Positions 2,302-23,448 are shown, counted from the stretch's first letter. The stretch is DNA of 64,000 bases from an uncultured bacterium (GCA_963735925.1 CAVTMT010000003.1:1767463-1831462); one strand, 5' to 3'. The notes: generated from the letters alone by a model not told the origin. Made by a program: numbers and translations.

Positions 2302-2561
2302 GACGAGTGGCCCTCCAAGCCTCTGCCGGTGACGGAACGCGGGTTGCCGAGTGCCGGTGGATTCCGGTGACCACGTCGAAACCGCATCCGCGCCCGATCC
2401 CGGATCGCGCTCCGCGGCGGGCTGCCCATGGGCCTGACCGGGCCGAGCGGCCGCTCGACCCGGATGCCAGGCCGGCGCAGCAACGCCATCCTGCCGGGTT
2501 CAGAATAGGCGGGCACGTTCGACAGCGACGTGCGGCTTTCCTATCACCGACCGGATGCCCC

Positions 2562-3734
2562 GTGTGGACGGATGGACCCACTTCAACTCCGCGTCGCCGA
2601 GCCCGCCGGTCCAGCCGGTTTCCGGTTTGGGGCTGGTTATGGCTGTTGGTGGCGTTGACCGCCACGGCGACGGCCGCGCCGAAGCGTGGCAACGGCCGCG
2701 GGTTCGACTACCTAAACGACAAGGATCCCAGCGTTCCGTGGTCGGTTCACGTGCTCAAGGTCGATCGCTCCCGCCGCGACTTCGAACTCTGCACCACGCT
2801 GGGGCGGTCGAACACATTCGGGATGGCGCTCGTGTCCGAGCAGGTGAAGGCATTGCCACCGGACAGCGGAGAGCCGATCGCCGCTGTGAACGGCGATTTC
2901 TACGGCAACAGCGAGCATTACCAGGGCCGTCCGCGCGATCTCCAAATCTCCCGCGGCGAACTGGTCACCAACCCGGGCGGTCACACCTGTTTCTGGATCG
3001 ATGCCGCCGGGAACCCCGGCATGACCAACCTCGAATCGCGGTTCCGTGTCGTCTGGCCGGACGGCAGCGCCACCCCATTCGACCTCAACGAAGAGCGCGG
3101 CCCGGAGGCCGCCGTGCTTTACACCGGGGTGGTCGGCCCTTCGACGCGGACTGCCGGCGGTTGGGAATTCGTGCTTGAACGCGGCACGAACTCCGCCTGG
3201 TTGCCGCTTCAAGTCGGACGAACCTACTCGGCCCGCGTCCGTGCGGTTCGTCACGAAGGCGACAGCCCGCTTGGCCCGGAAGTCGTGGTGCTCTCCATCG
3301 GCAGCGGCCTGACTTCCCGGCTTCCGCCGGTGAGCGTCGGAACCCTGCTCCAGCTCGTCACCGAGACCGTTCCCGACCTTGCCGGCGCCAAGATGGCGAT
3401 CGGCGGCGGCCCCCGGTTGGTGGAGAACGGCAAGCCGATGCAGTGGTCCGGCCTGCAGTTCCGCCATCCGCGCACGGCCGTCGGCTGGAACCAGGAGACG
3501 CTCTTCCTCGTCGAAGTGGACGGGCGGCAAAGCAGTCTGTCTTTGGGCATGAGCTTTCCCGAACTGGCGGCCTACCTGGTCAAGCTCGGCTGCGACCAGG
3601 CCATGAACCTGGATGGCGGCGGTTCCTCGACCTTTTGGATGCTGGGCGGAGTGGTCAACAGTCCTTCCGAAGGCCACGAACGACCCGCCGCCAACGCGCT
3701 GGTCCTGGTGGAGAAGCGGGCGCCCAAGAACTGA
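2562..3734 (+). CDS. phosphodiester glycosidase family protein (NAGPA-like), tandem paralog
   Basis: Motifs AAVNGDFYGN and MNLDGGGSSTFWMLGG, about 50 % identical to the upstream paralog over the core. The start is set at in-frame GTG 2562, which gives a signal peptide (RRRARRSSRFPVWGWLWLLVALTATATAAP). The ORF is open from 2298, so the start is uncertain. Confidence 0.72.
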   Translation: MWTDGPTSTPRRRARRSSRFPVWGWLWLLVALTATATAAPKRGNGRGFDYLNDKDPSVPWSVHVLKVDRSRRDFELCTTLGRSNTFGMALVSEQVKALPPDSGEPIAAVNGDFYGNSEHYQGRPRDLQISRGELVTNPGGHTCFWIDAAGNPGMTNLESRFRVVWPDGSATPFDLNEERGPEAAVLYTGVVGPSTRTAGGWEFVLERGTNSAWLPLQVGRTYSARVRAVRHEGDSPLGPEVVVLSIGSGLTSRLPPVSVGTLLQLVTETVPDLAGAKMAIGGGPRLVENGKPMQWSGLQFRHPRTAVGWNQETLFLVEVDGRQSSLSLGMSFPELAAYLVKLGCDQAMNLDGGGSSTFWMLGGVVNSPSEGHERPAANALVLVEKRAPKN

Positions 3735-3754
3735 TCCGGCCGCGGCCGGTCCCG

Positions 3755-5413
3755 ATGCGGTTCCCCTTGCCAAAATGCTGCGCCGGGCCGCCATTCCGTT
3801 GCGGCGCGGCCCTGTTCGCCGCCGGCCTCCTGGTCGGCTGGACGGCCCCGCCGCCGCTCCGTTCCCCTGCCTTGCCGCTTCGTCCAAACCTGCCCGGAGC
3901 AGAACTGTTCATGGACGGGGCGGTTCAGGACATCGTCATCGAGATCGCACCGCGCGAGGTCGAGTCGCTTCGCCAAAGGCCGCGGGAATATGTGTCCGTC
4001 ACGCTCCGCAGCGGGCCGCTGACGCTGCCCCGCGTGGCGCTGCGGCTCAAAGGATCGAGCGGCAGCTTTCGCGCCGTGGACGACCAACCGGCCCTGACGG
4101 TGGACTTTTCGCGATTCAGTGCCGGCCAGCGGTTCCACGGACTGCGGCGCCTTTACCTCAACAACTCGGTCGAGGACCCGGGCTACCTCAACGAGCAGCT
4201 CGGGGCCGGACTGTTCCACGAGGCCGGATTGCCCGCGCCGCGCATCAGTCACGCGCGGGTGCACTTGAACGGGCGGAATCTGGGGCTCTACGTGCTCAAA
4301 GAAGGATTCACCGAGGACTTCCTCGGCGGCAGCTTTCAGCGGACGGATGGGAACCTTTACGACAACGACTCGGGCCATGACGTGGACCAGGTCATGCACC
4401 GCAATTTGGGCCGCCATTCCCGGGGCGACCAGTCCGATGTCATCGCTTTGGCCGAGGCCGCGCGTGAGCCTGATTTCGACCAGCGCTGGCAACGGCTGGG
4501 ACAGGTGCTCGATCGCGAGCGCTTCATCACGTTCATGGCCTTGGAAGTCCTCCTGGTTCACCGGGACGGCTACTGCCTGGCACGAAATAATTTCCGCATT
4601 TACCACGACCCGGACAGCGATCGGCTGGTCTTCCTCCCTGACGGGATGGACCAGTTGCTGGGCCTGGCGAGCTTTCCTTGGAAACCGCGCTTCGCGGGCA
4701 TCGTGGCCGCGAGCCTGATGGAAACACCCGCCGGCCGGGAACAGTACGGCGAACGTTTTGCCAGCCTGCTCCGCACGGTCTTTCGACCGGAACCCCTCGG
4801 CCATCGCGTCGATCAGTGGGTGAGCGCATTGCGCCCCAACCTGTCTGCGGACGAGTTCCGCGGCTTGAACCGCGAGGCCGGCGCGCTCAAGCAACGCATC
4901 GCCGACCGACACGCCGATCTGCAGCGGCAACTGAATGCGCCCGAACCCGGACCGCTCGAGTTCACGAACGGAGCCGCCCGGGTCACTGGTTGGTTCAAAG
5001 TGGACGAGCCGGCTGGTGGCCGGTTGGACCGCGCGAGTGCTCCGGACGGCGTGCCTTCGCTGCATTTCGTGGCCGGCCCGGTGACGCGCGCATCGTGGCG
5101 GGCGAAGGTGTGGCTCCGCCCCGGGCGGTACCGCTTCGTCGGCCGCGGCACCGCGGCCGGGGTGACCCCCCTGCCCTTCGGTCGATTCCAGGGCGCCGGC
5201 CTGCGCGTCGGCGGCCGCACCCGCACCGAAACGGGGCTGCTCGGAACTTCGCACTGGCAACCGTTGGCAACGGAGTTTGAGGTCGTCGCGGCCCATGAGG
5301 AAATCGAGTTGCTCTGCGAACTGTCCGCCAACGGCGGCGAGTTCTGGGTGGACCTGGATTCGCTTCAGGTCGTGGAAGTCCAGGCGACCGCGCCCTCGAA
5401 ACCGGCCGGGTAA
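3755..5413 (+). CDS. CotH family protein (spore-coat protein H-like atypical kinase fold), secreted
   Basis: ATG at 3755 gives a signal peptide (MRFPLPKCCAGPPFRCGAALFAAGLLVGW). CotH-like blocks are present (LRLKGSSGSFR, ALTVDF, RRLYLNNSVEDPGYLNEQLG, NLYDND…). The upstream 312 nt of the ORF are treated as non-coding. Confidence 0.78.
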   Translation: MRFPLPKCCAGPPFRCGAALFAAGLLVGWTAPPPLRSPALPLRPNLPGAELFMDGAVQDIVIEIAPREVESLRQRPREYVSVTLRSGPLTLPRVALRLKGSSGSFRAVDDQPALTVDFSRFSAGQRFHGLRRLYLNNSVEDPGYLNEQLGAGLFHEAGLPAPRISHARVHLNGRNLGLYVLKEGFTEDFLGGSFQRTDGNLYDNDSGHDVDQVMHRNLGRHSRGDQSDVIALAEAAREPDFDQRWQRLGQVLDRERFITFMALEVLLVHRDGYCLARNNFRIYHDPDSDRLVFLPDGMDQLLGLASFPWKPRFAGIVAASLMETPAGREQYGERFASLLRTVFRPEPLGHRVDQWVSALRPNLSADEFRGLNREAGALKQRIADRHADLQRQLNAPEPGPLEFTNGAARVTGWFKVDEPAGGRLDRASAPDGVPSLHFVAGPVTRASWRAKVWLRPGRYRFVGRGTAAGVTPLPFGRFQGAGLRVGGRTRTETGLLGTSHWQPLATEFEVVAAHEEIELLCELSANGGEFWVDLDSLQVVEVQATAPSKPAG

Positions 5414-5863
5414 CCAACGCGCAGAACCCGGTTGCGTTCCCCCGGCCCGGAGCGGGCTTGACCGGGCGCCCACTGGATCGAGTCTGGCGCCAGGCCGCGT
5501 TTGCCGGCACGGTGGGGTTGCGGGTGGATGCTCTTCACCGACGGAGCCGGTGCCCGTAAACCGTTGATCGTCTGTTGGCTGCTTGCGGGCCGACCGGGAG
5601 ACCCGGTTTGCAGGAGTGCGCCGCCGCCGCGGTGGCGGCGCAAGGCGGTGCGACGGCGCCGCCACCACCGATACCGGACATCACCCGACCTCGGGGGCTC
5701 GCCCGGGGTCTGCCTTGTCAGGGCGGCATGGCGCGTGCTAAGCAAAGGCTGTCGTGCAGCCAAAACGGAATTCGCTCTCCTGGTCTCCAGAACCTCATCG
5801 CCGCGCCGGGCGGGATGCCGGCGGCCCAGACCGGAGGCGGAGTGGGGGATCCAGTTGCCTGTT

Positions 5864-6526
5864 ATGAAACGAATTCGAAGGTGGTCGGCCTTTACGTTGA
5901 TCGAACTGCTGGTCGTCATCGCCATCATCGCCATTCTCGCGGGATTGCTGCTTCCCGCGCTGGCACGCGCCAAGGCGCAGGCCAAAAACGTCAACTGCAT
6001 CAACAACGTCCGGCAGACCAGCCTCGGTTTCCGCCTCTGGGCGCACGACAATGCCGACAAGTATCCCTGGAACCTGAGCGTCGCGCAGGGGGGCAGCGGC
6101 GGTTCGGCCGACTGGACCGACAACTTCCGCCTGTGCTCGAACGAGTTCGCCACGCCGCTGATCCTCCATTGCCCGGCGGACCGCGCGACCAAGCCGGGCA
6201 CCAACTGGACCTTTCTCGCAGCCGACACCAGTGTGAGCTATTTCATCAGCACGAACTCCAGCGAGAACCTCCCGGAGTCGATCCTGCTGGGCGACCGAAA
6301 CGTCATCGGCGGCGGCGGCGGGCTCGATCCGTCCTGGAGTGTGTTCCTGGGCAGTTCGATCGACGCCGCGTGGGACAAGGATATCCACGTTCGCGCGGGC
6401 AATCTGGGCATGGCCGACGGCAGCACACGCTCCTGCACGACCCCGGCCTTGCGCACGTTGATCAGCGCCGAACTGGCGGCCGGGTTGACCAACGTGGTGT
6501 TCTCCAAACCGCGCGGCATTTTTTGA
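5864..6526 (+). CDS. DUF1559 (H-X9-DG) protein with prepilin-type N-terminal cleavage/methylation domain
   Basis: [51 protein letters not shown] is the canonical PVC pseudopilin-like N-terminus. The C-terminal motif is [13 protein letters not shown]. The ATG at 5864 was confirmed in sequence. Confidence 0.85.
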
Positions 6527-6791
6527 CGACCTCACGCACCCAGGTCCGAGGCGCAAGGCCCTCAACCGACGCGTTCCCGCCCATGAACAGACGGCCAGAC
6601 GTTTGAACCGAAAACCGCAGATGCACGCCAATGAACGCAGCGAAGACCGACGCAGTAAGCATTTCGAGTGACCGGACCGGGTGCATCCCCCGGGTGAACC
6701 CACCCGCGACGGCGAACCGTTTCCTCTCTGCGTTGATCCGGGCCCATCTGCGGGCCAACTGCGCGATTTGGGTTGAACCGTTAACCCCGAC

Positions 6792-7454
6792 GTGAGGAGC
6801 AGCAAACTCATCAACGCAGTCGCCGGCCTCGCCATCGTCGGGTCCGCGGCCTGGCTCTGGGTCGCCGTGAACGGGTGGCCGCCCAGTCCTGAAGCCAGGC
6901 CGGCCGAAGCCTCCGGTTGGGGGATGGCGAAGGAAGCCCTGCGGGCGCTCAAGCCCGGCGGCCGGCTCGTCGTGATCGTCCGCGACACCGAGGCCTTCAA
7001 GCACCCCGAAACCGACCTCCAGTTGCGCAGCTTCGAGCAGGCCGTACACCAGGCCGGAGTCACCATCGGCGCCACCCGGACGCTGCAAGTCGATCCGTTG
7101 CGCGCACTGGAAGTACCCGGCGGCGATTTCTACGAGTTGATCCGCCGTGCGCCGACTGGAAGCGTGATCGTGTCGTTCATGGGACCGCCGATCTTGACCG
7201 CGGATCAGCGCGCGCGATTGAGCGATCCCAAACCTCCCATCATCGCTTTCTGCCCCGGCGCCTTGCCCCAGCAGATCGATCTCCGCGTGCTCTTCGCCGA
7301 GGGCCTGTTGCGCGCGGCTGTGATCAGCCGCGGGACGCCCGCTCGCCCCGCCACCCCGCCGAAGGACTCCAACGGCTGGTTCGACCGGTATTACCGCATC
7401 ATCACGGCCGCCGACGTCGCCAACCTGTACGAGCCGACCAGCGGCTCGCCTTGA
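6792..7454 (+). CDS. hypothetical membrane-anchored protein
   Basis: N-terminal TM (LINAVAGLAIVGSAAWLWVAV) and high GC3 coding bias. It sits 10 nt upstream of the next gene and no family is recognised. Confidence 0.55.
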   Translation: MRSSKLINAVAGLAIVGSAAWLWVAVNGWPPSPEARPAEASGWGMAKEALRALKPGGRLVVIVRDTEAFKHPETDLQLRSFEQAVHQAGVTIGATRTLQVDPLRALEVPGGDFYELIRRAPTGSVIVSFMGPPILTADQRARLSDPKPPIIAFCPGALPQQIDLRVLFAEGLLRAAVISRGTPARPATPPKDSNGWFDRYYRIITAADVANLYEPTSGSP

Positions 7455-7464
7455 ATCCGGCCCC

Positions 7465-8169
7465 ATGACCTCCCGCCACCCAGCGCGCAGTTGTCCGCCA
7501 CCCACCCGGCAGGGCGGGTTCACGTTGACCGACTTGCTGGCGACGCTCGCTGTCCTGTCGGTGGTCGGCGTGCTGATCTTCACTCCCCTGCTGGCCGCGA
7601 AGCGAAAGGCGCGGCTGGCGCAATGCACCGCCAACCTCCAACGGGTCGGCCAGGCGATCCTGACGTACGCCGCCGAGAACAACCAGACCCTGCCCGATGT
7701 CTTCCCCGATCAACGCGGCGACTTGTGGTGGTGGTACAAGGAGAAGGTCAAGGCTTACGCGGGTTTGACTGGCGCCTCCTCGGCCGCCGACCAGGTGTTT
7801 GCCTGCCCCGACGACCGCGGGTACACGGACCCCAAGCCGTTTCATGCGAACGCGCGGTTCGACTTCACGAGCTACGTGCTCAATGCCGTCAATCTGCCCG
7901 GCATGCCGAACCTCGCCGGCTGGCGGGTGTCCGCTGTGAATCAGCCGGGTCGCACGCTGCTGGTGATGGAGTGGACCGCCCACGCTCCGCTTTCCTGGCA
8001 TCGGAGCCGCACCGGCAAACGCAACCTGCCCTTCTATCGCGATGCCGAAAGCGTCGTCGGTTTCGTGGACGGACACGTGAGTTTCACCAGGATCTACTAT
8101 GACGGGTTCGACGCCGCCTTCACGCGCGACCCCATCGCCGGCTATGACTACAAGTACAGTGGAAACTAG
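7465..8169 (+). CDS. prepilin-type N-terminal methylation domain protein, DUF1559-like
   Basis: GFTLTDLLATLAVLSVVGVLI follows a cleavage-site Gly, with Asp in place of Glu at position +5. The C-terminus carries FVDGHVSF (H-X9-DG-like). Confidence 0.7.
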   Translation: MTSRHPARSCPPPTRQGGFTLTDLLATLAVLSVVGVLIFTPLLAAKRKARLAQCTANLQRVGQAILTYAAENNQTLPDVFPDQRGDLWWWYKEKVKAYAGLTGASSAADQVFACPDDRGYTDPKPFHANARFDFTSYVLNAVNLPGMPNLAGWRVSAVNQPGRTLLVMEWTAHAPLSWHRSRTGKRNLPFYRDAESVVGFVDGHVSFTRIYYDGFDAAFTRDPIAGYDYKYSGN

Positions 8170-10192
8170 ACATCCCGCCGCCACCCGGATCGGCGCCCGA
8201 TCGCTCGCCCGATGGCGGTTTGGCTCAAGCGGTCTGTCTCTGGCGCGGACCTTACCCGGTCTGGCCGCGTGTGCGCTGGGTGCGCTATCGCTGGTGGCCG
8301 GCCCGCTGCCCGGTCCGTGGGTGCCTTTGTTCAAAGGAATCGAGCATGCGGTCGGCACAAATCAACCGGGCGTGGCCGGCAATTTCCCCCGGCTGCAGGT
8401 GGCCCACTGCATCCGCGTGGACCTGACCGATCCCGACGTTCGGCTCTTCACGACTCCTGCGGCCGCCAGCTACGATGTCGAGTCACGCGAAACCCTGACG
8501 CAGGCAGTGCCGGGCTTTCTCAGGCAACACCGCCTCCAGGTGGCCTGTGACGCGAATTACTACAGCGCCAACCCAGGAGGCGCGGATCCGACCAAAGAGG
8601 GCGTGTCATGCGACGTCTTTGGCCTGCAGGTTTCCACGGGAACGGTGGTTTCGCCGCAGACGACGGCCGACATCGGTGGGGATCCCCGCTTCGCGGCCCT
8701 GCTCTTCACGACCAACAATCAGCCCGCCTTCAACTTTGTGAACCGTCCGCCGGGTACCAACCTTGCGGGCATCTACACCGCCGTCACCGGCTACTACCCG
8801 ATCGTCTCCAACGGGGTGAACATCGGCGCGGCCACCATCAAGAGCTATCCGGACAACACGATTCATCAGGTCCAGCCGCGCACCGTCTTCGGTCTCTCCC
8901 AGGACAATCACTATCTGCTCCTCATGACCGTGGATGGGCGGCAGTCCGACTACAGCGATGGCGCCTTGGACACCGAAACCGCCTACTGGATGCTGCAGTT
9001 TGGCGCCTGGAACGCGATCAACATGGACGGCGGCGGCTCCACGGCGCTTTACATGGCGGACAGCACCGGGCAGCCCGTGGCCGTGAATCATTCCAGTTAC
9101 CTGGCGGCCTATGGACGGGAACGCTATGTCGGTTCCCATTTCGGCGTGTGGGCCAAACCCCTGCCCGGCTTCATCAACGAGGTCGCGGTGGCCTCCGATG
9201 ACACCTCAGCGACGGTCACCTGGAGCACGACCGCTCCCGCCACAACCCAAGTCGCCTACGGGCCGACGCCGGACCAGGGCCTCTCAACCACGCTCCAGAC
9301 GGACTTGGTGACGAATCACATCGCCGTCCTGGCGAACCTGACCCCCGCAACCGACTACTATTTGCAGGCCGTCTCCACCCGCGGAACCGACCGGTACGCG
9401 TCTTCGAACCTCACGTTCACGACCACCAATTACGTCTCGGTGAATCCGGTGTTTGACCTCACCCATACCTGGACCTACACGACGGCGGATCTCGATGGAA
9501 CGCCGTGGACCAGCCCCGCGTACGACGATTCGGGCTGGGATGGCGCGGGCCCCGGCCTGCTCTGGGTGGATGTCCGAGCCACGGGCCCGAACCCCGAGGT
9601 CCAGCCGCGGAACACCCCGATGCCGGCGGACCCAAACAACAATGGCTATCCGTACATCACCTATTATTTCCGGACGCACTTCCAGCATACCAACGGTCTG
9701 GCGGGAGTGGTCCTGAACTTCACCAACTATCTTGACGATGGCGCCGTCTTTTACCTGAACGGGGTCGAAGTTTATCGGCTACTGATGGAACCAGCCCCGG
9801 CCGCAATTGCGAACCAGACGCTCGCCGCGGGTTACGGATGCTCCGGTGACGCCACCTGCCCGCTCGCCTTCTCCATCTCTGGGGACGCCGTCACGAATCT
9901 GGTCGCCGGCGACAACGTGCTCGCCGTCGAGGTCCACAATTACAACGCCCGCAGCCCCGACATAACGTTTGGGGTCGAGCTCTCGGTCACTGAACCGGTG
10001 GTCATCAGCCCCACGCTCCAGATCGCAGCGGCGCCGGAATCCTTCACGCTCACGTGGAACCGCAGCGGTTTCACCCTGCAGACCGCAACCGCTCCGGCCG
10101 GCCCGTGGACGGATGTGCCCGGCCCCGTGGTGACCAGTCCGTATTCGGCTGCCGCCACGGGCACGGCCCAGTTCTTCCGGCTCCGGAAGTAA
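8144..10192 (+). CDS. multidomain secreted phosphodiester glycosidase (NAGPA-like) with Fn3-like and beta-sandwich C-terminal domains
   Basis: NMDGGGSTALYMADSTG motif. There is an Fn3-like block (ATVTWSTTAPATTQVAYGPTP…DYYLQAVS) and a signal peptide (SLARWRFGSSGLSLARTLPGLAACALGALSLVAG). The start is set at ATG 8144, which overlaps the upstream gene by 26 nt; ATG 8099 is the alternative. Confidence 0.78.
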   Translation: MTTSTVETRHPAATRIGARSLARWRFGSSGLSLARTLPGLAACALGALSLVAGPLPGPWVPLFKGIEHAVGTNQPGVAGNFPRLQVAHCIRVDLTDPDVRLFTTPAAASYDVESRETLTQAVPGFLRQHRLQVACDANYYSANPGGADPTKEGVSCDVFGLQVSTGTVVSPQTTADIGGDPRFAALLFTTNNQPAFNFVNRPPGTNLAGIYTAVTGYYPIVSNGVNIGAATIKSYPDNTIHQVQPRTVFGLSQDNHYLLLMTVDGRQSDYSDGALDTETAYWMLQFGAWNAINMDGGGSTALYMADSTGQPVAVNHSSYLAAYGRERYVGSHFGVWAKPLPGFINEVAVASDDTSATVTWSTTAPATTQVAYGPTPDQGLSTTLQTDLVTNHIAVLANLTPATDYYLQAVSTRGTDRYASSNLTFTTTNYVSVNPVFDLTHTWTYTTADLDGTPWTSPAYDDSGWDGAGPGLLWVDVRATGPNPEVQPRNTPMPADPNNNGYPYITYYFRTHFQHTNGLAGVVLNFTNYLDDGAVFYLNGVEVYRLLMEPAPAAIANQTLAAGYGCSGDATCPLAFSISGDAVTNLVAGDNVLAVEVHNYNARSPDITFGVELSVTEPVVISPTLQIAAAPESFTLTWNRSGFTLQTATAPAGPWTDVPGPVVTSPYSAAATGTAQFFRLRK

Positions 10193-10600
10193 TCCGCATC
10201 GAACGGACAACCTGCCCGTTCGATGCGGCAGCCGGTCCACGCCTCGAGCAGGCTTTGAACCGCTTTGGCCCGCGGGTTCCCGCACGCCGCGCTTGTCGTC
10301 GGGGCAGTGGCCGACCTTCGGATCGGCGCCGGCACAGCGGCGCCCTACCGGGTGGAGGTCGAGCTGCGGCTCGTCCAATTGGGTGCCAAGGCAGCCGCCG
10401 GGCCAGTTGCCCGACGGCACCGACCGGCGGCCCGTGCCGTCCCGTCTCGATTTCGAGCTTCGCATCGGGAGGAGTCGGCCAGTCCGGGTGTCACCGTCAC
10501 TGACCTTCCCCGGGGCTCGCCCGTTGGCAGAGCCCTCCCAAGCAAAAGGGGCGCGCGAAATCGCGCGCCCCGTGAACGAGGATTGATGGGCCGGCTCGCC

Positions 10601-13600
10601 TCAGAGCTTGACCCGATAGAACTTGGCGCCGCCGGCGGGAGTCGCCGTGTAACTCGGCGCGCTGGCGCCGGTCACCGTGGACCATGGCCCGGTAACGGCA
10701 TCCGCCGATTCCAGCGTGCCGTTCGACCACTCGATGACCACGTTGCTACCGGACTTCTGAATCTGCATGGTCACCTGTGTCGGGGCCGTGGTGTCGAAAC
10801 TGCGCCCGTAATCCTGGCCGACGATGTAGATCGCCTGCGCGTCGTAGTCGGTGAGCACGCTGCGCCAGATGCCGAGGTCGTCGATCTGCGCCGTCCCCGG
10901 TTCGGCATAGCTTCCCCCGGCCTGGCCGATGGTCCACGTCAGCGCGGTGCGAAGATCCCAACTGACGGCGGTCGCGATCGAGGTGGCGTTCACCTTGACG
11001 CCATCCAGGTAGGTGGTGCCGTCACCCGTGCGGTCGAAGATATGCACCAGGTGATGCCAGGTGCCGTCATTGAGCGTGTTTTGCACGGGGTCGTAAAGCC
11101 CGACCCCCGGCCAAGGTTGCGAGGTGATCGAGTCGTTCAGCCCCCAGGACCAGCCGCCCTGGTTGTACGACGGCGCGAGCGTGACGCCCGGGCCGCCCAT
11201 CGAACCCGTGTTGTTGGCCAGGAAGGGCAGGTCGCCCGGGCTGCCGGTGAACTTGATCCAGAAGGCCACGGAGAAGCTCTGACCCGGCCCGAAGTCCAGG
11301 TCCGACGGCGTGCCCAGCGACACGTAATTCGCCGCGGAGACGCTTCCCCCCTCGACCACGGTGCTGTATTGCAGGGCACCGGTGCCGATCTTCCCGGTCA
11401 CGATTTGCGGCGAGCCTTCGGCCGTGCCGTTGTTATTGCGGCCCGAACTGTCCAGATAATTGCCGTCGAACTTGAGGTGCAGCACGAGGTTGTCCGCCAG
11501 GTTCAGGTAACTCGGGACCGGCTTGACCGTGAGCGTCACGGGCGTGGTCGAAACCTTGGTTGCCCCTTGGGTCACGAACAACTGGTAACTGCCCGTGTCC
11601 GCGACGGTCGCGCTCGGGAACACCAGGCTGCTGCGAATCGCCCCGGGCAGATCCTGACCATCCTTCTGCCACTGGTAGGTCAACGGCAGCGTGCCGCTCG
11701 CCTTGGCGCTCAGGGTATAGCTGGACCCGGCCAGGATGGTCTGTCCCTTCGGCTGCTGCGCGATCTGAACCGGCGTGGTCACGTAGGTCCCCTTCACGCC
11801 GGCATCGTGCAGCTTCGTGATCTCCGCCTGCGACAAGGAGCGGTCATAGATCACCACGTCGTCGATCGCGCCTTTGAAGAAGCGAGACCCATTGCCGTCG
11901 GTGCCGAAACGCAGCGTGCCATCGAACTCCTCGGCGTTGTGATTGACGGTGTTGACCCCGTACTGCATCCCGAAGCCCTGACCGTCGTCGAGGTAGATCG
12001 TGGCCTGATCGGGTTCGACCACGAGCGCAACGAAGTTCCAGTTTCCGTCCGCCGGGTAGAGCCCGGAAGCCCAGCCGTAGGTGTTGGCGGCGTCATTCCA
12101 GTGGTACCCCAACTGGCCGCCGGTCTGGTAATCCAGACCCGCGACCGTGTTGCCGCCACGGCTGAACACGATCCCGTCGTAATCGTCGGGAGTCCCGTTC
12201 GGCTTGATCCAGGCCACGATCGTCAGATTCGCCTTGTTCAGGTTCAGCGGCGGAACGTCCACCTCGCCGCCGCCGCCGTTGAAGTCATACGCGGTGTTGC
12301 CCGCGTCGAAGCCCTGGAAGGCCGTCGGCACCGGACCGGCCACCCCCAGGGTGACGCCGGCATTGGCCACGCCGTCGCGACCGCCCCAGTAATCGTAGGC
12401 CGTGGTGCCCTCGGTTTCGTCCAGGCGCCAGTACCCAATCGGCCCCAGGTCGGCCGCCGCCGCGGCCAGCTTGGTGGGCGTCTTCAGCGTCAGCGTGGCG
12501 GTCACATTCGTGCTGCCGTACTGGTTGGAGACGACCACGGTGTAATCGCCGGCGTCGGCCGGTTGCAGATCGCTCACCACCAAAGTCGGTGCGGTGGCCC
12601 CGGCGATGGCGTCGGCCCCGTGTTTCCATTGATACGCGATCGGCTGGCTGCCCAGGGCGGCTGTCACGAACTGCACCGTGCCATTCAAGAACCGGACGGC
12701 CGAGGAGGGCACCTTCGTGAGGACCGGGGGCGAGGTGACGACTTCGAGGTGGTTCGCGGCGCTGGTCAGCGTCTTTCCCCCGGTGGTGGCTTCCACCGAA
12801 TAGTCTCCGCTGTCCGCCGTGGTCACGTTCGCGAGTTGCAGCGTCGCGGCGGTCTCGCCCGCGATGGGCGTTCCGCCTTTGAGCCATCGATACGTGACCG
12901 GCGCGGGGCCGGCCACGGTCGTCTGGAAGGTGACGTTCATGCCTTCGTAAACCGGGTCCGCGGTCCGCGTGAGCGACAAGATTCCCGGGATGGCGGCGTT
13001 GTAGAGCGAAGCGATTTGGTCGTAGGTCAAGGTTTTGTCGAACATCGCGAATTCATCGATGCTGCCGCGGAAGACGCGCGTCGTCTGGTAGTTATCCCAC
13101 CCGATCTCGAGGCTGGTGCCGCTGAAGTCGTGGGGAATATTCGCGAACACGTTCGTGGCGGCCTGCAGTCCGGCGGCGCTGCCCATGAAGAGGACGCCGT
13201 TGTCCGGCGAGATGGTGACGGCCACGAACGTCCAGGCCTGGTCGGGCGGCACGAAGCCGGGGTTGAAGTTGTAGGCACTGCCCTGGTCCTCCCAGTTGTA
13301 GCTCAGGCCCAGGCCGTCGTCCTGAAAGCCGAGCCCGGTGGCCTTGACTTCCGGGGCGCTCACCTTGCGGTTGTGCATGATCGCCGCGCGCGCCGGCTGC
13401 TTGCCGTCCCGCTTGATCCAGCAGACTATCGTGGCGGTGTCGGTGTTCAGGTTGAGGCCCGGAATGCTCACCGAACCGTTGGTGCCGTTGAAGCCGGCCG
13501 CGTTGTTCGTGCTCTCGAAACCGGTAACCGCCGGGCTCTGCGGCCCCGGGATCGCCGACTGGGTCCCGGCGAGGAACAGGCCGTCCGCCGCCGTCCCGTA

Positions 13601-14530
13601 GCTGCCGCTGTTCACCGCCACCGGCAGCGCGAGCGACGGCTCGCCCAGCCGCAGGTAAACCGGCGGGTTCTTCTGCAGGATCAGGTCGGCATAGGCCGTG
13701 GTGCGCGCGGCATTGGTGCCGTTGGCGTAATGCGACTGCACCTCCGCCGGCGTCAACGCGGTGGTGTAGATGGCGACCTCATCCACCAAGCCGTTGTAGT
13801 CCCAGCCGGTGTACCCGCGGTCGCCGAGAATCAAGGGCGCACCCGTATTGCGGAGCATCGGGAATTGCGCGGGCGGGACGTCCGAGGCCACCTCGTTCCC
13901 GTTCAAATACAGCTTCACCGTTGCACCGTCATACACGGCTACCACGTGTTGCCAGACCCCGGGGGTGACCGTGGTCGCGGCGGTGAGGGTCGTGCCGTAG
14001 TAGGTCGCGCCGTCGGAATGGTCGTACCCGAGAATGAACTGCCAGTCGGTGCCATTGTGCCGCAGGAGCCAGCCGCTGCGATCGTCCCCGTTCGCGGGGT
14101 TCTGCCCGTTGACCATCGCGCTCGCGGCCGTGTGGTTGCCGGAGGCGTCGTTGGCCGGGTTGGCCCAGAGTTCGACCGTGAACGGCCCGGCCGGATTGTA
14201 GTCCGGCGAATAGGGCACCACCACCTGGGCTCCCGTGCTGCCGTCGATGAACACCGACGTGTCCGCATCGCCCGCGATGGCGCCGGGCCGACTGCGCGCG
14301 GCGGCCATCGCCTGATACTCGCCGTTGAAAGCGGCGCCCAACGTGCCGCGGTTCACCGCCGGCACTTCGGCCGGCACCGGGTTGGTATTGCTGAACCGAT
14401 AGTAGGCAACCGGGTTCAACGACTGCACCGCGGCGGCATAGTCGGCCATCGCCGGCGGCGGGCTGAACACCGCCGCGCCGAGCAGTCCGGCCAGCAGGGT
14501 CGAGGAGCCAAGGGTTTGGATTTTCATCAT
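10601..14530 (-). CDS. giant secreted protein with about 4 LamG/concanavalin-A-like (Laminin_G_3) and about 3 Ig-like domains (1309 aa)
   Basis: Signal peptide MMKIQTLGSSTLLAGLLGAAVFSPPPAMA. The start is ATGATG at 14530/14527, confirmed on the reverse strand. LamG_3 blocks recur (FTVELWANP…WQHVVAVYDGATVKLYLNGNEV; NWNFVALVVEPDQATIYLDDG; GTWHHLVHIFDRTGDGTTYLDG). Ig-like motifs are present (GDYSVEATTGG, GDYTVVVSNQYGS, GSYQLFVTQGA). The upstream 45 codons of the ORF are treated as non-coding. Confidence 0.85.
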   Translation of the reverse strand: MMKIQTLGSSTLLAGLLGAAVFSPPPAMADYAAAVQSLNPVAYYRFSNTNPVPAEVPAVNRGTLGAAFNGEYQAMAAARSRPGAIAGDADTSVFIDGSTGAQVVVPYSPDYNPAGPFTVELWANPANDASGNHTAASAMVNGQNPANGDDRSGWLLRHNGTDWQFILGYDHSDGATYYGTTLTAATTVTPGVWQHVVAVYDGATVKLYLNGNEVASDVPPAQFPMLRNTGAPLILGDRGYTGWDYNGLVDEVAIYTTALTPAEVQSHYANGTNAARTTAYADLILQKNPPVYLRLGEPSLALPVAVNSGSYGTAADGLFLAGTQSAIPGPQSPAVTGFESTNNAAGFNGTNGSVSIPGLNLNTDTATIVCWIKRDGKQPARAAIMHNRKVSAPEVKATGLGFQDDGLGLSYNWEDQGSAYNFNPGFVPPDQAWTFVAVTISPDNGVLFMGSAAGLQAATNVFANIPHDFSGTSLEIGWDNYQTTRVFRGSIDEFAMFDKTLTYDQIASLYNAAIPGILSLTRTADPVYEGMNVTFQTTVAGPAPVTYRWLKGGTPIAGETAATLQLANVTTADSGDYSVEATTGGKTLTSAANHLEVVTSPPVLTKVPSSAVRFLNGTVQFVTAALGSQPIAYQWKHGADAIAGATAPTLVVSDLQPADAGDYTVVVSNQYGSTNVTATLTLKTPTKLAAAAADLGPIGYWRLDETEGTTAYDYWGGRDGVANAGVTLGVAGPVPTAFQGFDAGNTAYDFNGGGGEVDVPPLNLNKANLTIVAWIKPNGTPDDYDGIVFSRGGNTVAGLDYQTGGQLGYHWNDAANTYGWASGLYPADGNWNFVALVVEPDQATIYLDDGQGFGMQYGVNTVNHNAEEFDGTLRFGTDGNGSRFFKGAIDDVVIYDRSLSQAEITKLHDAGVKGTYVTTPVQIAQQPKGQTILAGSSYTLSAKASGTLPLTYQWQKDGQDLPGAIRSSLVFPSATVADTGSYQLFVTQGATKVSTTPVTLTVKPVPSYLNLADNLVLHLKFDGNYLDSSGRNNNGTAEGSPQIVTGKIGTGALQYSTVVEGGSVSAANYVSLGTPSDLDFGPGQSFSVAFWIKFTGSPGDLPFLANNTGSMGGPGVTLAPSYNQGGWSWGLNDSITSQPWPGVGLYDPVQNTLNDGTWHHLVHIFDRTGDGTTYLDGVKVNATSIATAVSWDLRTALTWTIGQAGGSYAEPGTAQIDDLGIWRSVLTDYDAQAIYIVGQDYGRSFDTTAPTQVTMQIQKSGSNVVIEWSNGTLESADAVTGPWSTVTGASAPSYTATPAGGAKFYRVKL

Positions 14531-14802
14531 GGACTGTTGAGTTTCTGTTCTGGTTTGTATTCCGAGGATCACGCTGGCGTTCGCGCCGCCGGCCGCCGGC
14601 CTGCGCCCGAGAACTTCCCGAAATCCGTTGCCCGGTCTGGGCCGTCGTCGCCCCGCCACCATCATCCCGCCCGGCCGCCGAAGCCCTCGCCCCGGCGCCT
14701 CACGCAGTCAAGCTACGCTTCCCGCCAACTGTGGGGCAACCCCGAAAACCACCCGGCGTGGGACGCGGTTGCTTTGCGCGGGCGCTGCCGCCATCCTCCG
14801 GC

Positions 14803-15621
14803 ATGGCCGTTGCCGCCCCCAGCCTGCTGCTGCTCATCCCGGCCTACAATGAGGAGCAGCGGATCGGACCGGTGTTGCGCGAGTACGCGCAGCACTTTCG
14901 GCAGCATTACGCCGGCGCGGCGCGCATCGTGGTCATTCTCAATGGCTGCCGCGACAACACCCTGGGCGTCGTCCAGTCCGTCGCGCTGGATTTCCCGGAG
15001 ATTTCGCACCGCAACTTTCCCGGCCGGATCGGCAAAGGCGGCGCCTTGATCGAGGGCCTCAAGCTCGCGCCGGAGGCCGACCTGATCGGTTATGTGGATG
15101 CCGACGGCGCCACCGGGCCGGCCGCCTTGCTGGGATTGGTCAGCCAGTTGCCGGGCGCCGATTGCGTCATCGGCTCCCGGTGGCTGCCGGGGTCGGTGTT
15201 GCACCAGAGCCAGCCGTGGACACGACGCCTGTTCAGCCGCGCCTTCCACGCGATTGTCGAAGCGCTGTTCTGGATGCACATCCGCGACACGCAATGCCCG
15301 GCCAAACTGCTGCGCCGCGCCGCGGTGGAGCGGGTCCACGACGCGCTGCAAATCGCCGACCTGGCCTTCGACGTGAACCTCCTCTACGTGCTCAAGCGAC
15401 AGGGATTCACCGTGCGCGAAGTGCCGATCGAGTGGACCGACAAGCTGGGCTCGACGGTCACGCGGAGCCTCGTGCGCTCCTCGCTCGTGATGTTCCTCTC
15501 GGTGGTCCGGCTGCGATTGGTGTACTCGCCGCTCTATCAGTGGCTGGGCCCCTTGCGGCCGCTCGAACTCTGGCTCTACCGCAAACTGGGTTCCCCTCCG
15601 CCGCGAGATACGAGGAATTGA
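14803..15621 (+). CDS. family 2 glycosyltransferase, DPM1-like (polyprenyl-phosphate mannose/glucose synthase-like)
   Basis: LLLIPAYNEEQRIGPVLREYAQHF, VVILNGCRDNT, DADGATGP and GSRWLPGS. The ATG at 14803 was confirmed. Confidence 0.8.
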   Translation: MAVAAPSLLLLIPAYNEEQRIGPVLREYAQHFRQHYAGAARIVVILNGCRDNTLGVVQSVALDFPEISHRNFPGRIGKGGALIEGLKLAPEADLIGYVDADGATGPAALLGLVSQLPGADCVIGSRWLPGSVLHQSQPWTRRLFSRAFHAIVEALFWMHIRDTQCPAKLLRRAAVERVHDALQIADLAFDVNLLYVLKRQGFTVREVPIEWTDKLGSTVTRSLVRSSLVMFLSVVRLRLVYSPLYQWLGPLRPLELWLYRKLGSPPPRDTRN

Positions 15622-15645
15622 ACGCCGCCGGCCAACGACCCGCGC

Positions 15646-16715
15646 ATGACCCCGGAGAAATGGAAGCTCATCGAGCGCTGCGCACGCGGCGAAGATCCCG
15701 GCACGGTGCCGGTGGCGTTGATCATCGACAGCCCGTGGATTCCCGGTTACCTTGGCCTCTCGACGCTGGATTACCTGACCGTCCCGGAGGTCTGGCTGGA
15801 GGCGAACCTGCGCGTCGAGCGCGCCTTCCCCGACGCCATCTTCCTGCCCGGCTTCTGGGCCGAGATTGGCATGACCGCCGAGCCGAGCGCCTTCGGCTGC
15901 AAGGTGAGTTTGTTTCCCGACCGGACCCCGATCGCCCACCCGCTCATCAGCGGCATCGAGGAACTGGATCGGCTCACCGCGCCGAACCCGCTCACGGACG
16001 GCTGGCTGCCGGTGATCCTTAACCAGTATACCGCCGGCTCGAACCGCGCGTGAAGGACGGCGGCCACGCCATCAAGATGGTCGCCGCGCGCGGGCCGTTG
16101 ACCGTCGCCACGCATCTGATGGGCGTGACCCAGTTCCTGCTCGCGCTGAAGTTGAACCCGGCCGAGACGCACCGACTGCTGCGGACGACCACGACGCTGG
16201 TGCGCGACTGGCTGGCGGCGCAGGCCGGCGCGCTGAGCGAAGTGGCCGGCATCCTGATATTGGATGACATCGCGGGCATGATGTCGGCGCGGGATTACCG
16301 GGAGTTCGCCCACCCATATCTCCGCGAAATCTTCGACGCCTTTCCCGGCGCGGTGAAAGTCTTCCACAACGACACCGACAACCCGGTTTCCTATCCGTAC
16401 CTGCGCGAGTTGGGCATTCACCTTTTCAACTTCACGCACCTCCAACCGATCGCGAAGGTGCGCGCGCTGGTGGGCCCGGAATTGTGTCTGATGGGCAACG
16501 TCCCGCCGCTCGACGTGCTCGCTCAGGGCACGCCGGAATCGGTCCGGCAACACGCCTGCGAATGCCTGCGGGCGCACGGTGCCACGCGCGGGCTGCTGCT
16601 CTCCGCGGGGGGCGGAGTCTCGCCCGGCACCCCGGGCGAGAACCTGGCGGCGTTGGTCCACGCGCCGGGACGGTTCGCCGCCGCGGCGGCGGGCGATGGA
16701 GCTCCCGCAGGATGA
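15646..16715 (+). pseudogene. uroporphyrinogen decarboxylase (URO-D)/MtaA-family protein interrupted by a 1-nt frameshift (ORFs 15646..16053 and 16050..16715)
   Basis: Two adjacent ORFs in different frames form the N-terminal part (…LIIDSPWIPGYLGLS…) and the C-terminal part (…GGHAIKMVAARGPLTVATHLMG…HNDTDN…) of one URO-D family protein of about 350 aa. The frame changes between 16023 and 16050. This is either a real pseudogene or a sequence error. Confidence 0.55.
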
Positions 16716-16935
16716 TCGACCGGGCATGCGCGCGCCTCCCGGTCCCCAAAGTCACTTTCCGGGCGAGCAGGTCCGCCGCGAAACCGGCCATCGCGCACGC
16801 ATTGGCCAGGCCCGGCGCCAGTCCGTCGGCGCGACGCCGACGGGAGCGACCGTGACGGTCGCGCTCCCCTGGTCGGCTGCGAATACGCTTGGCCCAGCCG
16901 GAAATCTGGCTACAAAACGAGCCGTGAGCGAGGCC

Positions 16936-17499
16936 ATGCCCACCACTCCGCGCCGCGTTGCGGTGCTGGTCATCGATGTCCAGACGGGACTGTTTCGCGC
17001 GACGCCGCTGCCATTCGATGCGGCAGGAACACTCGCCCGCATCAATGAAACGACAGCCAAGGCGCGCGCGGCCGGCCTCCCGGTCATCTTCGTCCAACAC
17101 GACGGCGATCCGGCGGAGGACTGCTGCGTGCCCTTCAGCGAAGGCTGGCGATTCCATCCCGACCTCTGCGTGAAGCCGGGCGATGTGACGCTCCGCAAGC
17201 AGACGTGCGACGCTTTTCACGGCACGGCCCTGGAATCGGAGTTGCGCCGGCGCGCGATCAACACCGTGGTTCTGACGGGATACGCCACGGAATTCTGCGT
17301 CGATTCGACGCTGCGGGTCGCCGTGAGCAAGGGTTTCCGCGTCATCGTTGTCGCCGACGCGCACACCACCTCCGACAGTCCGGTCCTGGGAGCCGAAAAG
17401 ATCCGCGACCACCACAACTGGGCCTGGGCCAACTTGCTGCCGGTCGCCGCCGTACGGGTCATCCCCGCGGCGGACCTGGCGTTTTCCGCACCTCGCTGA
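16936..17499 (+). CDS. isochorismatase-family cysteine hydrolase
   Basis: RVAVLVIDVQTGLF, PVIFVQHDG and VVLTGYATEFCVDSTLRVA. The ATG at 16936 was confirmed, and the upstream part of ORF 16579.. is treated as non-coding. Confidence 0.75.
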   Translation: MPTTPRRVAVLVIDVQTGLFRATPLPFDAAGTLARINETTAKARAAGLPVIFVQHDGDPAEDCCVPFSEGWRFHPDLCVKPGDVTLRKQTCDAFHGTALESELRRRAINTVVLTGYATEFCVDSTLRVAVSKGFRVIVVADAHTTSDSPVLGAEKIRDHHNWAWANLLPVAAVRVIPAADLAFSAPR

Positions 17500-17582
17500 A
17501 GCCGCTCGTCGGCTCGGCCCCGATCTGCAGCGCTTATTTTTTGCTTTCCGGCGGGGCGGGGTTCCCGTTGGCTAGCCGGCCC

Positions 17583-18764
17583 ATGAACGGTCCGGAACCG
17601 TCCCCCGACTTCGTTGCCCGGCACGTGCGCGAGCTGCCGCGTTCGGGCATCCGCGCGTTTTTCGACCTGGTTCAAGGCCTGCCCGACGTGATCTCGCTGG
17701 GGGTGGGCGAACCGGATTTCGTCACCCCCTGGCACATTCGCGAGGCGGCCATCTATGCCCTGGAACGGGGCAAGACCAGTTACACCTCGAACCTGGGTTT
17801 GCTGCGGCTGCGCGAGGCCATCAGCGCGTGGGTGGGCCGCCGTTTCGGCGTGCGCTACGAGCCGGCGTGCGAAGTGTTGGTGACGGTGGGGGTAAGCGAG
17901 GCGCTGGACCTGGCCTTGCGGGCGGTGTTGAACCCGGGCGACGAGGTGCTCTATCACGAGCCTTGTTACGTGAGTTACTCGCCCAGCGTGACGCTGGCCC
18001 ACGGGGTGCCGGTGGCCGTGCCCTGTCGCGCGGCGGACGGCTTTGCAGTGCGGGCCGAGGCGATCGCCGCGCGACTGACCCCGCGTAGCAAGGTGCTCTT
18101 GCTCAATTTCCCGACCAACCCGACCGGGGGCACGATGGAGCGGGCGGAGCTGCTGCGTATCGCCGAGCTGGCGGTGCGGCACGATCTGCTGGTGATCACC
18201 GACGAGATTTACGCCGAGCTCACCTTCGAGGGCGAGCACGTGAGTGTGGCCTCGCTGCCCGGGATGCGGGCGCGGACGATCTTTCTGCACGGCTTCTCGA
18301 AGGCGTACGCGATGACGGGCTTTCGGATCGGATACGCCTGCGGGCCGGCGGCGCTGGTGGAGGCGATGATGAAAATCCACCAGTACTCGATGTTGTGCGC
18401 GAGCATCGTGAGCCAGGAGGCGGCGGTGGAGGCGCTCGTGCACGGGGACGGGGACATGGTGGAGATGCGGGAGGCGTACCGGGCGCGGCGCAACGTGATC
18501 GTGGGGGCGCTCAACGCGATGGGCTTGAGCTGCCACCGGCCGCGGGGTTCGTTCTACGCGTTTCCGAGCGTGGCGGCGACGGGTCTGAGCGCGCAGGAAT
18601 TCGCGGGGCGGCTCTTGCGGGAGGAGCGGGTGGCGTGCGTGCCCGGGGACGCGTTCGGGCCGGGGGGCGAGGGCTACGTGCGGTGTTGCTTTGCGACGGC
18701 GCTGGACCGGATCGAGGAGGCGATGGCGCGGATGGCGCGCTTTGTGGCGCGAGTGCGGGGTTGA
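17583..18764 (+). CDS. pyridoxal-phosphate-dependent aminotransferase, class I/II (aspartate/aromatic aminotransferase family)
   Basis: ISLGVGEPDF, NPTGG, SKAYAMTGFRIGY and the whole fold-type I pattern. The ATG at 17583 was confirmed. Confidence 0.9.
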   Translation: MNGPEPSPDFVARHVRELPRSGIRAFFDLVQGLPDVISLGVGEPDFVTPWHIREAAIYALERGKTSYTSNLGLLRLREAISAWVGRRFGVRYEPACEVLVTVGVSEALDLALRAVLNPGDEVLYHEPCYVSYSPSVTLAHGVPVAVPCRAADGFAVRAEAIAARLTPRSKVLLLNFPTNPTGGTMERAELLRIAELAVRHDLLVITDEIYAELTFEGEHVSVASLPGMRARTIFLHGFSKAYAMTGFRIGYACGPAALVEAMMKIHQYSMLCASIVSQEAAVEALVHGDGDMVEMREAYRARRNVIVGALNAMGLSCHRPRGSFYAFPSVAATGLSAQEFAGRLLREERVACVPGDAFGPGGEGYVRCCFATALDRIEEAMARMARFVARVRG

Positions 18765-18851
18765 GCCGGGCGAGCGGCCGCAAACCTCGCGAACCGAGCT
18801 CCGGGAGGGCCTGGCGCTCCGCCGGGGGCAATGGACTTGGGGTGGGGGAGT

Positions 18852-18883
<32 letters not shown>

Positions 18884-18979
18884 CCGGGGCTGGGGCTGAG
18901 GACGGGAGGGTTCGGCGGCGGTCCGGTTTTGGCCTTTGCGGCGGGCGGAGGGGCGGCTAGGGTACGGGCGGGGCGGGAC

Positions 18980-19053
18980 TGTCCGATGGTGTAATGGCAG
19001 CACAGGGGTCTTTGGAGCCCTTAGTCCAGGTTCGAATCCTGGTCGGACAGCCA
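18980..19053 (+). tRNA. tRNA-Gln (anticodon UUG), CCA encoded
   Basis: Cloverleaf folded by hand. The acceptor pairs TGTCCGA with TCGGACA (the U1:A72 pair typical of bacterial tRNA-Gln), with discriminator G. The anticodon stem is GGGGT/GCCCT and the loop is CTTTGGA, giving UUG. The T-arm is CCAGG-TTCGAAT-CCTGG. Confidence 0.8.
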
Positions 19054-19225
19054 ACACTTCAAGCCTGGACATCCACTTCGCCGGACGCACTCGGGAAACC
19101 GCATCCGGGATTCACGCAATTCCCAGAATCAGGAGCGGGCTTCGCGGGAGTCGGACTTCAGCGTTATGCCAAATCCGATGTCCGACCAATCCTCGCGGGC
19201 CACCGGGGACGAGTCCCCTCAATCT

Positions 19226-20248: not shown

Positions 20249-20274
20249 TCGGGCCACGCCACGACCGCTTGCCG

Positions 20275-23322: not shown

Positions 23323-23420
23323 GTCAATGGGCGCGCAGCCTAGCGAAACCGCCGCGCCTTTGGCAACAAGCGCCCGTCCGACCGAGCTTTTCCGCCCTGC
23401 CAAATCCGCCCAGGCAGGTT

Positions 23421-23448
23421 GGAACTGGTGGCTCGACCGGTCACCGTC
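23421..23448 (+). promoter_or_regulatory. candidate ECF-type promoter (GGAAC … CGTC) about 80 nt upstream of the ECF sigma gene
   Basis: GGAAC at 23421-25 and CGTC at 23445-48. The spacer is 19 nt, longer than the canonical 16-17 nt, so this is weak. Confidence 0.2.

Follow-up and report, generated by a model that had tools for sequence, protein, structure and literature searches.

The canonical fibronectin type III (Fn3) domain is a seven-stranded sandwich (A-B-E / C'-C-F-G). Small immunoglobulin (Ig)-like sandwiches also form the C-terminal domains (CTDs) of proteins handled by the type IX secretion system (T9SS) of Bacteroidota, and chaperone-usher pili are built from incomplete Ig folds that are completed in trans; the CTD of RgpB has reportedly been crystallised as a C-terminal strand-swapped dimer. 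A T9SS is not known from Verrucomicrobiota. Here we describe a C-terminal module of about 60 residues carried by two proteins of an uncultured bacterium, encoded on a stretch of 64,000 nucleotides (GCA_963735925.1 CAVTMT010000003.1:1767463-1831462; hereafter the window, positions being counted from its first letter). Sequence profiles and predicted models together indicate that this module is an Fn3 domain truncated after strand F.

The shared C-terminal module

The two carriers, their module copies and the strand that ends each copy are located as follows (domain order according to Pfam).

8099-10192, plus strand (alternative start at ATG 8144): carrier 1, a NAGPA-family protein of 697 residues, or 682 from ATG 8144; signal-peptide-like N-terminus, NAGPA phosphodiester glycosidase domain (residues 147-351), Fn3-like Pur_ac_phosph_N (362-442), unannotated beta-rich region (about 450-630), module
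10601-14530, minus strand: carrier 2, a LamG/Ig giant of 1309 residues; signal peptide (MMKIQTLGSSTLLAGLLGAAVFSPPPAMA), four Laminin_G_3 domains, three Ig domains, module
9995-10189, plus strand: module copy 1, the final 65 residues of the NAGPA-family protein, PVVISPTLQIAAAPESFTLTWNRSGFTLQTATAPAGPWTDVPGPVVTSPYSAAATGTAQFFRLRK; by its alignment an Fn3 domain without FG loop and G strand
10604-10786, minus strand: module copy 2, the final 61 residues of the LamG/Ig giant, APTQVTMQIQKSGSNVVIEWSNGTLESADAVTGPWSTVTGASAPSYTATPAGGAKFYRVKL; matched by the module's hidden Markov model (HMM) with 81-110 bits, ending 0-1 residue before the stop
10169-10189, plus strand: strand F of copy 1, QFFRLRK (the "aromatic-basic tail"), paired by hhalign with TYYYRVRA of canonical fn3; DSSP strand at residues 60-64
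10604-10624, minus strand: strand F of copy 2, KFYRVKL, in the same profile columns as that of copy 1; DSSP strand at residues 64-68

The open reading frame (ORF) of the NAGPA-family protein closes with TGTAQFFRLRK and a stop codon at 10190-10192 (plus strand), that of the LamG/Ig giant with GGAKFYRVKL and a stop codon at 10601-10603 (minus strand). An earlier sequence-only reading had placed both ORFs and both tails at these positions, with the genes convergent across a gap of 408 bp (10193-10600), and had claimed that two otherwise unrelated proteins share a C-terminal module of about 60 residues; our comparison bears this out. The tails align over 58 residues with 36% identity and 57% positives (BLASTP, E 2e-9), and the bodies of the two carriers (617 and 1248 residues) show no mutual similarity, the best E-value being 1.2. 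In neither protein are the final 60 or so residues reached by a Pfam or NCBIfam model, and a six-frame HMM scan of the window finds these two copies only. The pairwise E-value, together with some 10,000 relatives, rules out chance similarity between the tails.

A profile of 12 sequences, namely the two window tails and ten metagenome fragments, was searched exhaustively, without a word index, against 1.84 billion protein cluster representatives. Among its weaker multi-repeat matches were two arrays that Pfam scores as fn3, P0026 (269 bits over nine repeats) and P0032, and in both of them the profile matches every repeat. Module and fn3 repeats correspond in LxLxW (strand B), GF-x-V-x-RA (strand C), GPW-x-x-V (strand C'), SY or SPY (strand E) and FYRV with YYRV (strand F). 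When 53 tails (alignment A4) were compared with 13 canonical fn3 repeats (alignment A5) by hhalign, the probability of homology was 94.7% (E 6e-8), and module residues 8-65 paired with fn3 columns 15-80 of 99. The end of the module, AQFFRLRK, falls on TYYYRVRA of fn3; the final 19 fn3 columns (TNAAGDSPNSNTANATT), which hold the FG loop and the G strand, have no counterpart in it. Repeat periods agree with such a loss, tandem module copies recurring every 63-77 residues and canonical fn3 repeats every 94-95. Trp 21 and Phe 60 are at least 90% conserved and Arg 62 is invariant, and they align with the Trp, Tyr and Arg of canonical fn3 repeats.

On this evidence the module is an Fn3 domain truncated after strand F, predicted to keep strands A, B, C, C', E and F and to end 3-4 residues past the invariant Arg of strand F. 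The consensus of internal copies is the same as that of terminal ones, FFRLR included. Since F[FY]R[LV][KR] is the canonical Fn3 F-strand motif and is equally conserved in internal copies, it is a folding element and not a recognition tag at a free end. The fixed aromatic-basic tail, which the sequence-only reading had taken for a terminal tag, thus corresponds to the Fn3 F strand (YYYRVRA). That reading had also suggested that the supposed tag might be an unrecognised one, and the domain is in fact absent from the sequence models of Pfam, NCBIfam and PDB. When the 53 tails were scanned one by one at E<=1, no Pfam or NCBIfam family recurred, a profile search of PDB sequences with the module gave a best E-value of 0.5, and in the literature on the motif, on Verrucomicrobia sorting signals, on G-strand-less Fn3 and on Verrucomicrobiota LamG proteins we found no description of the module.

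Two independent AlphaFold2 (AF2) models of the window tails, with mean confidence (pLDDT) of 85.6 and 87.1, show the same five strands and a short bridge by DSSP, short of the seven strands of the canonical Fn3 sandwich; the model of the LamG tail (mc482129f2bac, pLDDT 87.1) has the same strand order as that of copy 1. The best structural neighbours of the models are Fn3 folds, headed by the Fn3 domain of CtXyl5A. A small C-terminal beta-sandwich had been anticipated from the sequence, and the models do give one of five or six strands. As modelled, the module is a compact beta-sandwich derived from Fn3, and tandem, internal, N-proximal (P0146) and stand-alone (P0172) copies speak for autonomous folding.

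The missing strand raises the question whether the fold is completed in trans, the open F-strand edge taking up a beta strand from a partner by donor-strand complementation or strand swapping. Candidates for the partner are a protein of the outer membrane or surface, a second module copy and the pilin-like protein whose gene precedes that of the NAGPA carrier, and the carriers would thereby be tethered or polymerised. Consistent absence of the G strand across the family (five or six strands by DSSP), the tight end of the module at strand F and the GspG/ComGC-like gene that immediately precedes the NAGPA carrier at 11 related loci would all fit. Yet AF2 models the monomer confidently without a partner, and the same F-strand residues occur in canonical Fn3, so that the edge is not marked as specialised. 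Neither a conserved N-terminal extension that could act as donor strand in the carriers, nor, outside the NAGPA cassette, a pilin-like neighbour within 10 kb of the window's LamG gene in either direction, nor chaperone or usher genes among ten neighbouring ORFs (1087-5410, 6792-8166 and 14731-23490) were found. We therefore hold trans-completion to be very improbable.

Within the NAGPA-family protein, residues 450-630 or so (window 9450-9990) form a beta-rich region of about 180 residues with the motifs YYFRTHF...DDGAVFYLNG...AVEVHNYN and no Pfam match. The same region also precedes the module in fragments P0001 and P0168. It is probably an unmodelled jelly-roll or carbohydrate-binding module (CBM)-like domain.

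Distribution and proposed role

At E<=1e-3 the profile matched 9,683 cluster representatives (1,176 of them also at E<=1e-10), which puts the family at about 10,000 clusters (at 50% identity) and answers the concern that no relative might carry the module. Position, architecture and copy type were counted in the best 159 proteins, inspection of the 9,683 matches covering the best 150, a copy of 35 bits or more being called strong. All but one of 101 single-copy matches end within 8 residues of the protein C-terminus, and so does the module in every one of the 25 single-copy carriers of at least 400 residues. The 165 strong copies comprise 127 terminal ones, 18 that directly precede another copy and 20 that are otherwise internal (38, or 23%, non-terminal). 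In 108 of the 127 terminal copies the stop codon comes 3-4 residues past the invariant Arg. The expectation that the module is always C-terminal therefore describes most copies and all long single-copy carriers, but not the tandem and internal copies, nor P0146 and P0172, in which it is N-proximal and stand-alone, respectively.

Doublets to quintuplets occur in P0017, P0018 and P0014. In P0025, P0033 and P0038 the module is internal and an Ig domain starts right after FFRLR, while P0146 has a copy adjoining the signal peptide with further sequence behind it. P0172 is a protein of 98 residues consisting of a signal peptide and the module alone; its ORF of 102 codons from stop to stop is present in two independent assemblies (L014, 233-529; L015, 213-509), one an NCBI metagenome-assembled genome (MAG) labelled Acidobacteriia and the other an ENA contig. 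Carriers include LamG, Ig, Big_7, cadherin-like, NHL, DUF5122 beta-propeller and NAGPA proteins and several without any Pfam match, and of 41 full-length carriers about 25 satisfy a crude test for a signal peptide. The module has evidently been shuffled onto many unrelated multidomain proteins that start with a signal-peptide-like segment.

Thirteen loci came out of a scan of genomes with a narrow peptide pattern; twelve belong to MAGs labelled Verrucomicrobiota (or Verrucomicrobia), Limisphaerales or Verrucomicrobiales, and one (L001) is labelled only "bacterium"; all except L013 are NAGPA orthologues with a C-terminal module, the pattern mostly recovering such orthologues and saying little on taxonomic breadth. 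A few other records with the module are labelled Omnitrophota, Acidobacteriia or Methylomirabilota. Going by these few named records, the module resides mainly in MAGs of Verrucomicrobiota (Limisphaerales, Verrucomicrobiales).

Two observations on individual sequences may be added. In L016, the module lies in an ORF of 86 codons (9878-10135) that overlaps, in another frame, the end of a gene for a 573-residue protein (8203-9921), probably owing to a frameshift that detached the tail from its carrier. In P0025, P0033 and P0038, a second small module, GxPGxNxxIQxSTNxxxWVxLxTNTAPxTFxDxNA...YR, follows the first and likewise has an aromatic-Arg end, the repeat unit being Ig, module, second module. 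This second module of about 50 residues may represent another truncated beta-sandwich family.

Could the module be a sorting signal? The sequence-only reading had suggested a surface-anchoring or export tag, and in its strongest form the idea is that of a lineage-specific C-terminal sorting or anchoring domain: dedicated machinery of Verrucomicrobiota or of the PVC (Planctomycetes-Verrucomicrobia-Chlamydiae) group would read the folded module on Sec-exported cargo, much as in T9SS, and would then take this cargo through the outer membrane or fix it to that membrane. The strong C-terminal bias on unrelated carriers, the near-constant distance from Arg to stop, the concentration of named records in mostly one phylum and the share of carriers with a signal peptide speak for such a system. 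T9SS CTDs are also small Ig-like sandwiches, and three of them (7pq4, 5hfs, 5ag8) are among the weak Foldseek matches of the LamG-tail model (query TM-score, TMq, 0.50-0.54; E 0.4-1).

Searches for known signals, and for their machinery among ten neighbouring ORFs, were negative. The comparison with TIGRFAM and Pfam sorting-signal models, by which the earlier idea was to be judged, gave no match among the 53 tails with any such model of Pfam or NCBIfam; the T9SS CTD models TIGR04183/PF18962 and TIGR04131/PF13585 matched neither the two window proteins nor the 53 tails at E<=1. The two tails contain no PEP motif and no hydrophobic stretch, and no NCBIfam match, that would indicate a PEP-CTERM/exosortase signal; no motif or hydrophobic helix of the LPXTG/sortase type occurs in either of them, the models being all-beta; and neither has a hydrophobic anchor. 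No conserved cleavage motif precedes the module in the tail alignments. The same ten neighbouring ORFs contain no match to the T9SS machinery (PorK/L/M/N, Sov, PorU/V), and no secretion-machinery gene stands next to either carrier save the pilin-like one, which stands beside the NAGPA gene only. Further copies are lacking in the 234 kb made up of the window and related loci, so that the module is not very dense in these genomes.

The position of the copies speaks in the same direction. T9SS CTDs are single and strictly C-terminal, whereas 38 of the 165 strong copies of the module are tandem or internal, one copy is N-proximal and one stands alone, unlike known cleaved sorting signals; moreover, the end motif is inherited from canonical Fn3 and conserved equally where it is not terminal. 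Of the proposed tag, then, recurrence on unrelated secreted cargo and the C-terminal bias stand, but descent from Fn3, the non-terminal copies and the lack of anchor, cleavage motif or model match tell against it, and we regard a dedicated sorting domain as unlikely.

We consider it somewhat more probable than its alternatives combined that the module is an accessory domain retained on the mature protein, most likely with a binding or tethering function, and not a cleavable export signal. The module would stay folded on the mature secreted protein and would, as a protein- or glycan-binding domain, keep secreted enzymes and adhesins attached to the cell surface or to a substrate, with greater avidity where copies stand in tandem. 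An export signal that is cleaved or recognised by a machinery is improbable, and non-covalent surface tethering is plausible. Across very different carriers, the module conserves loop residues outside the canonical fn3 core (GPW-DV, ATSPY, LQ-A), and a specific interaction surface is therefore favoured over a mere spacer.

The latter possibility, that of a passive end-cap without binding, would make the module a minimal Fn3 remnant which shields the C-terminus of long extracellular proteins from proteolysis or aids the folding of the preceding domain. Fn3 domains of bacterial glycoside hydrolases are often linkers, and the best structural match of the module is just such a domain, that of CtXyl5A; the module has no conserved cysteines, no metal ligands and very small loops. 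Against a passive role stand the strong conservation of the non-core loop residues as well as tandem multiplication and the stand-alone secreted form, both hard to explain for a cap, and we judge it to have a small chance of being right.

Several points count against the reading of the module as a truncated Fn3 domain used for binding. None of the 53 tails is matched by the Pfam fn3 HMM at E<=1, and the case for homology to Fn3 is made by profile-profile comparison, against a single fn3 subfamily, and by predicted folds, for which the Foldseek E-values with Fn3 structures are weak (0.02-0.2). Absence of the G strand is deduced from alignments and from DSSP strings of predicted models. Very few ordinary Fn3 or Ig domains are as C-terminal as this one (127 terminal among 165 strong copies, and every one of the 25 long single-copy carriers), a bias typical of sorting, anchoring or assembly modules such as T9SS CTDs and dockerins. 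A more far-reaching proposal may be added: the G-strand-less Fn3 would be a surface-assembly module of Verrucomicrobiota or PVC bacteria whose exposed F-strand edge is read by a dedicated partner, possibly through beta-strand complementation, so that a regulon of secreted enzymes and adhesins is retained or exported. To this we assign a low probability.

Gene neighbourhood

A plus-strand cassette (window 1087-10192) that is conserved in Verrucomicrobiota MAGs ends with the NAGPA carrier. Its other members, and two elements in the gap between the carriers, are these.

1087-2301, plus strand: NAGPA paralogue 1, without the tail
2298-3734, plus strand: NAGPA paralogue 2, without the tail
3443-5413, plus strand: CotH kinase-like protein
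6792-7454, plus strand: 220-residue protein without assigned family
7465-8169, plus strand: protein whose N-terminus is of the GspG/ComGC pilin type; its gene immediately precedes the NAGPA carrier
10194-10228, plus strand: 16-nt inverted repeat without T run, directly after the NAGPA stop codon
10548-10571, minus strand: intrinsic-terminator-like hairpin of 10 bp, all G-C pairs, then a T run (TTTTGCTT), 30 nt past the LamG stop

The full gene order recurs in L004, L006, L009, L011 and L012, and the last three genes (those for the 220-residue protein, the pilin-like protein and the NAGPA carrier) are kept together in 11 loci. NAGPA, CotH and the pseudopilin-like protein may form a functional unit. 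NAGPA orthologues with the terminal module, found at 12 MAG loci, are 42-67% identical to the window protein, and their tails 41-82%.

An orthologue of the LamG giant (88% identical) occupies the same convergent position in L001, the closest relative, only; at the other NAGPA orthologue loci (L002-L012) there is no second carrier. The convergent pairing, to which the sequence-only reading had drawn attention, is thus kept in just one close relative and has no functional meaning, because it is confined to L001 and the other orthologue loci have no second carrier. A functional link between the two window genes is ruled out on the same grounds, and each of them appears to have inherited its own copy of the module. 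Recent duplication or gene conversion between the convergent genes is excluded as well, the tails being just 36% identical and closer ones existing elsewhere (82% in L001, 58% to P0001). Nor is an inverted-repeat DNA element involved: the only inverted repeats in the DNA are one 16-nt hairpin and one 14-nt chance match.

The terminator-like hairpin after the LamG stop and the inverted repeat after the NAGPA stop, probably a hairpin at the transcript end, mark both carrier C-termini as genuine gene ends. No RNA element was found in the 408-bp gap (Rfam, E<=0.1).

Comparison of the window with L001 revealed unequal divergence. The flanking genes (pilin-like and LamG) are 87-88% identical and the tail 82%, whereas the NAGPA body reaches 62%, less than the 67% it shares with L005. 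This points to an enzyme body that has evolved faster than its neighbours or has been replaced. Elsewhere in the window, uroporphyrinogen decarboxylase (URO-D/hemE) is distributed over two adjacent plus-strand ORFs, 15622-16053 covering profile positions 6-123 and 16050-16715 covering 141-342, suggestive of a frameshift, of a pseudogene or of misassembly.

Significance and comparison with known systems

The Fn3 fold and superfamily are known; what is new is a truncated, terminally biased variant of about 10,000 clusters for which no Pfam or NCBIfam model exists. The C-termini of all these clusters, many of which are huge LamG, Ig or cadherin-like proteins or glycan-active enzymes and which come mostly from uncultured Verrucomicrobiota of soils and waters, are at present left unannotated, and recognition of an Fn3 domain cut after strand F gives the tail region an immediate structural annotation. 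The identity of the signature motif with the Fn3 F strand also means that the motif is no longer evidence for a sorting signal. The question that remains is why a strand-deficient Fn3 is so consistently the last domain of secreted Verrucomicrobiota proteins. If a tethering or export partner exists, the module offers a way into the poorly known sorting of outer-membrane proteins in the PVC group; if the surface-assembly proposal is true, it would belong to a new sorting or tethering system, in logic like the T9SS CTD or dockerin-cohesin pairs. Should there be no partner, the module can still serve as a useful marker for the exoproteome of Verrucomicrobiota, and nature provides in it a minimal six-stranded Fn3.

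The closest known relative is Fn3 itself (Pfam fn3, PF00041), in particular the bacterial tandem-array subtype with 'ETGF-x-[VI]-[ED]R...GPW...YYYRVRA', with which the module shares the strand order A-B-C-C'-E-F, the Trp of strand B, GPW at C', the aromatic-aromatic-Arg-aliphatic-basic F strand and a short A-B hairpin. It differs in length (about 60 against about 95 residues), in lacking the FG loop and G strand, in a B-C loop shorter by 6 residues and in its strong preference for the C-terminus, canonical fn3 occurring anywhere in a protein. The sequence-only reading had named a match to an ordinary internal Ig or Fn3 domain, free in position, as grounds for refuting the tag, and these grounds apply by half: the module does derive from the ordinary Fn3 domain, but its terminal preference (127 of 165 strong copies) sets it apart.

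A more distant likeness is seen in Ig_7 (PF19081, CHU_C-associated) repeats of giant Bacteroidota surface proteins, which score 10-30 bits per repeat with the module profile via W...GPW.DI.GAT..Y......YYR. These repeats are about 93 residues long, have extra cysteine-containing strands at both the N- and the C-terminal side and are internal, so the relationship is distant. Among the giants, P0011, P0012 and P0015 have 9-19 repeats of about 93 residues with flanking cysteines, in the same score range; P0015 matches Pfam Ig_7, and in P0012 a CHU_C T9SS signal is found alongside SprB repeats. Ig_7-type repeats and the Fn3 subtype of the module may thus be remotely linked.

T9SS CTDs (type A, Por_Secre_tail, TIGR04183/PF18962; type B, CHU_C, PF13585) resemble the module as small Ig-like C-terminal sandwiches on unrelated Sec-exported proteins of one lineage, there Bacteroidota. 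They are, however, seven-stranded, single, strictly terminal and cleaved, whereas the module also occurs in tandem, internally and alone, and there is no sequence or HMM match between the two. Chaperone-usher pilins are Ig-like sandwiches without the last (G) strand, and the module may resemble them in this, its own G strand being absent by alignment and DSSP; module carriers differ from them in having neither an N-terminal donor extension nor sequence similarity nor a chaperone or usher, and completion in trans would be hypothetical here. Dockerins, SLH domains, cell-wall-binding repeats and CBMs, finally, are like the module joined to many catalytic or adhesive bodies, usually terminal, variable in copy number and restricted to lineages. 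Dockerins and SLH domains have an unrelated fold, and the likeness is one of logic only.

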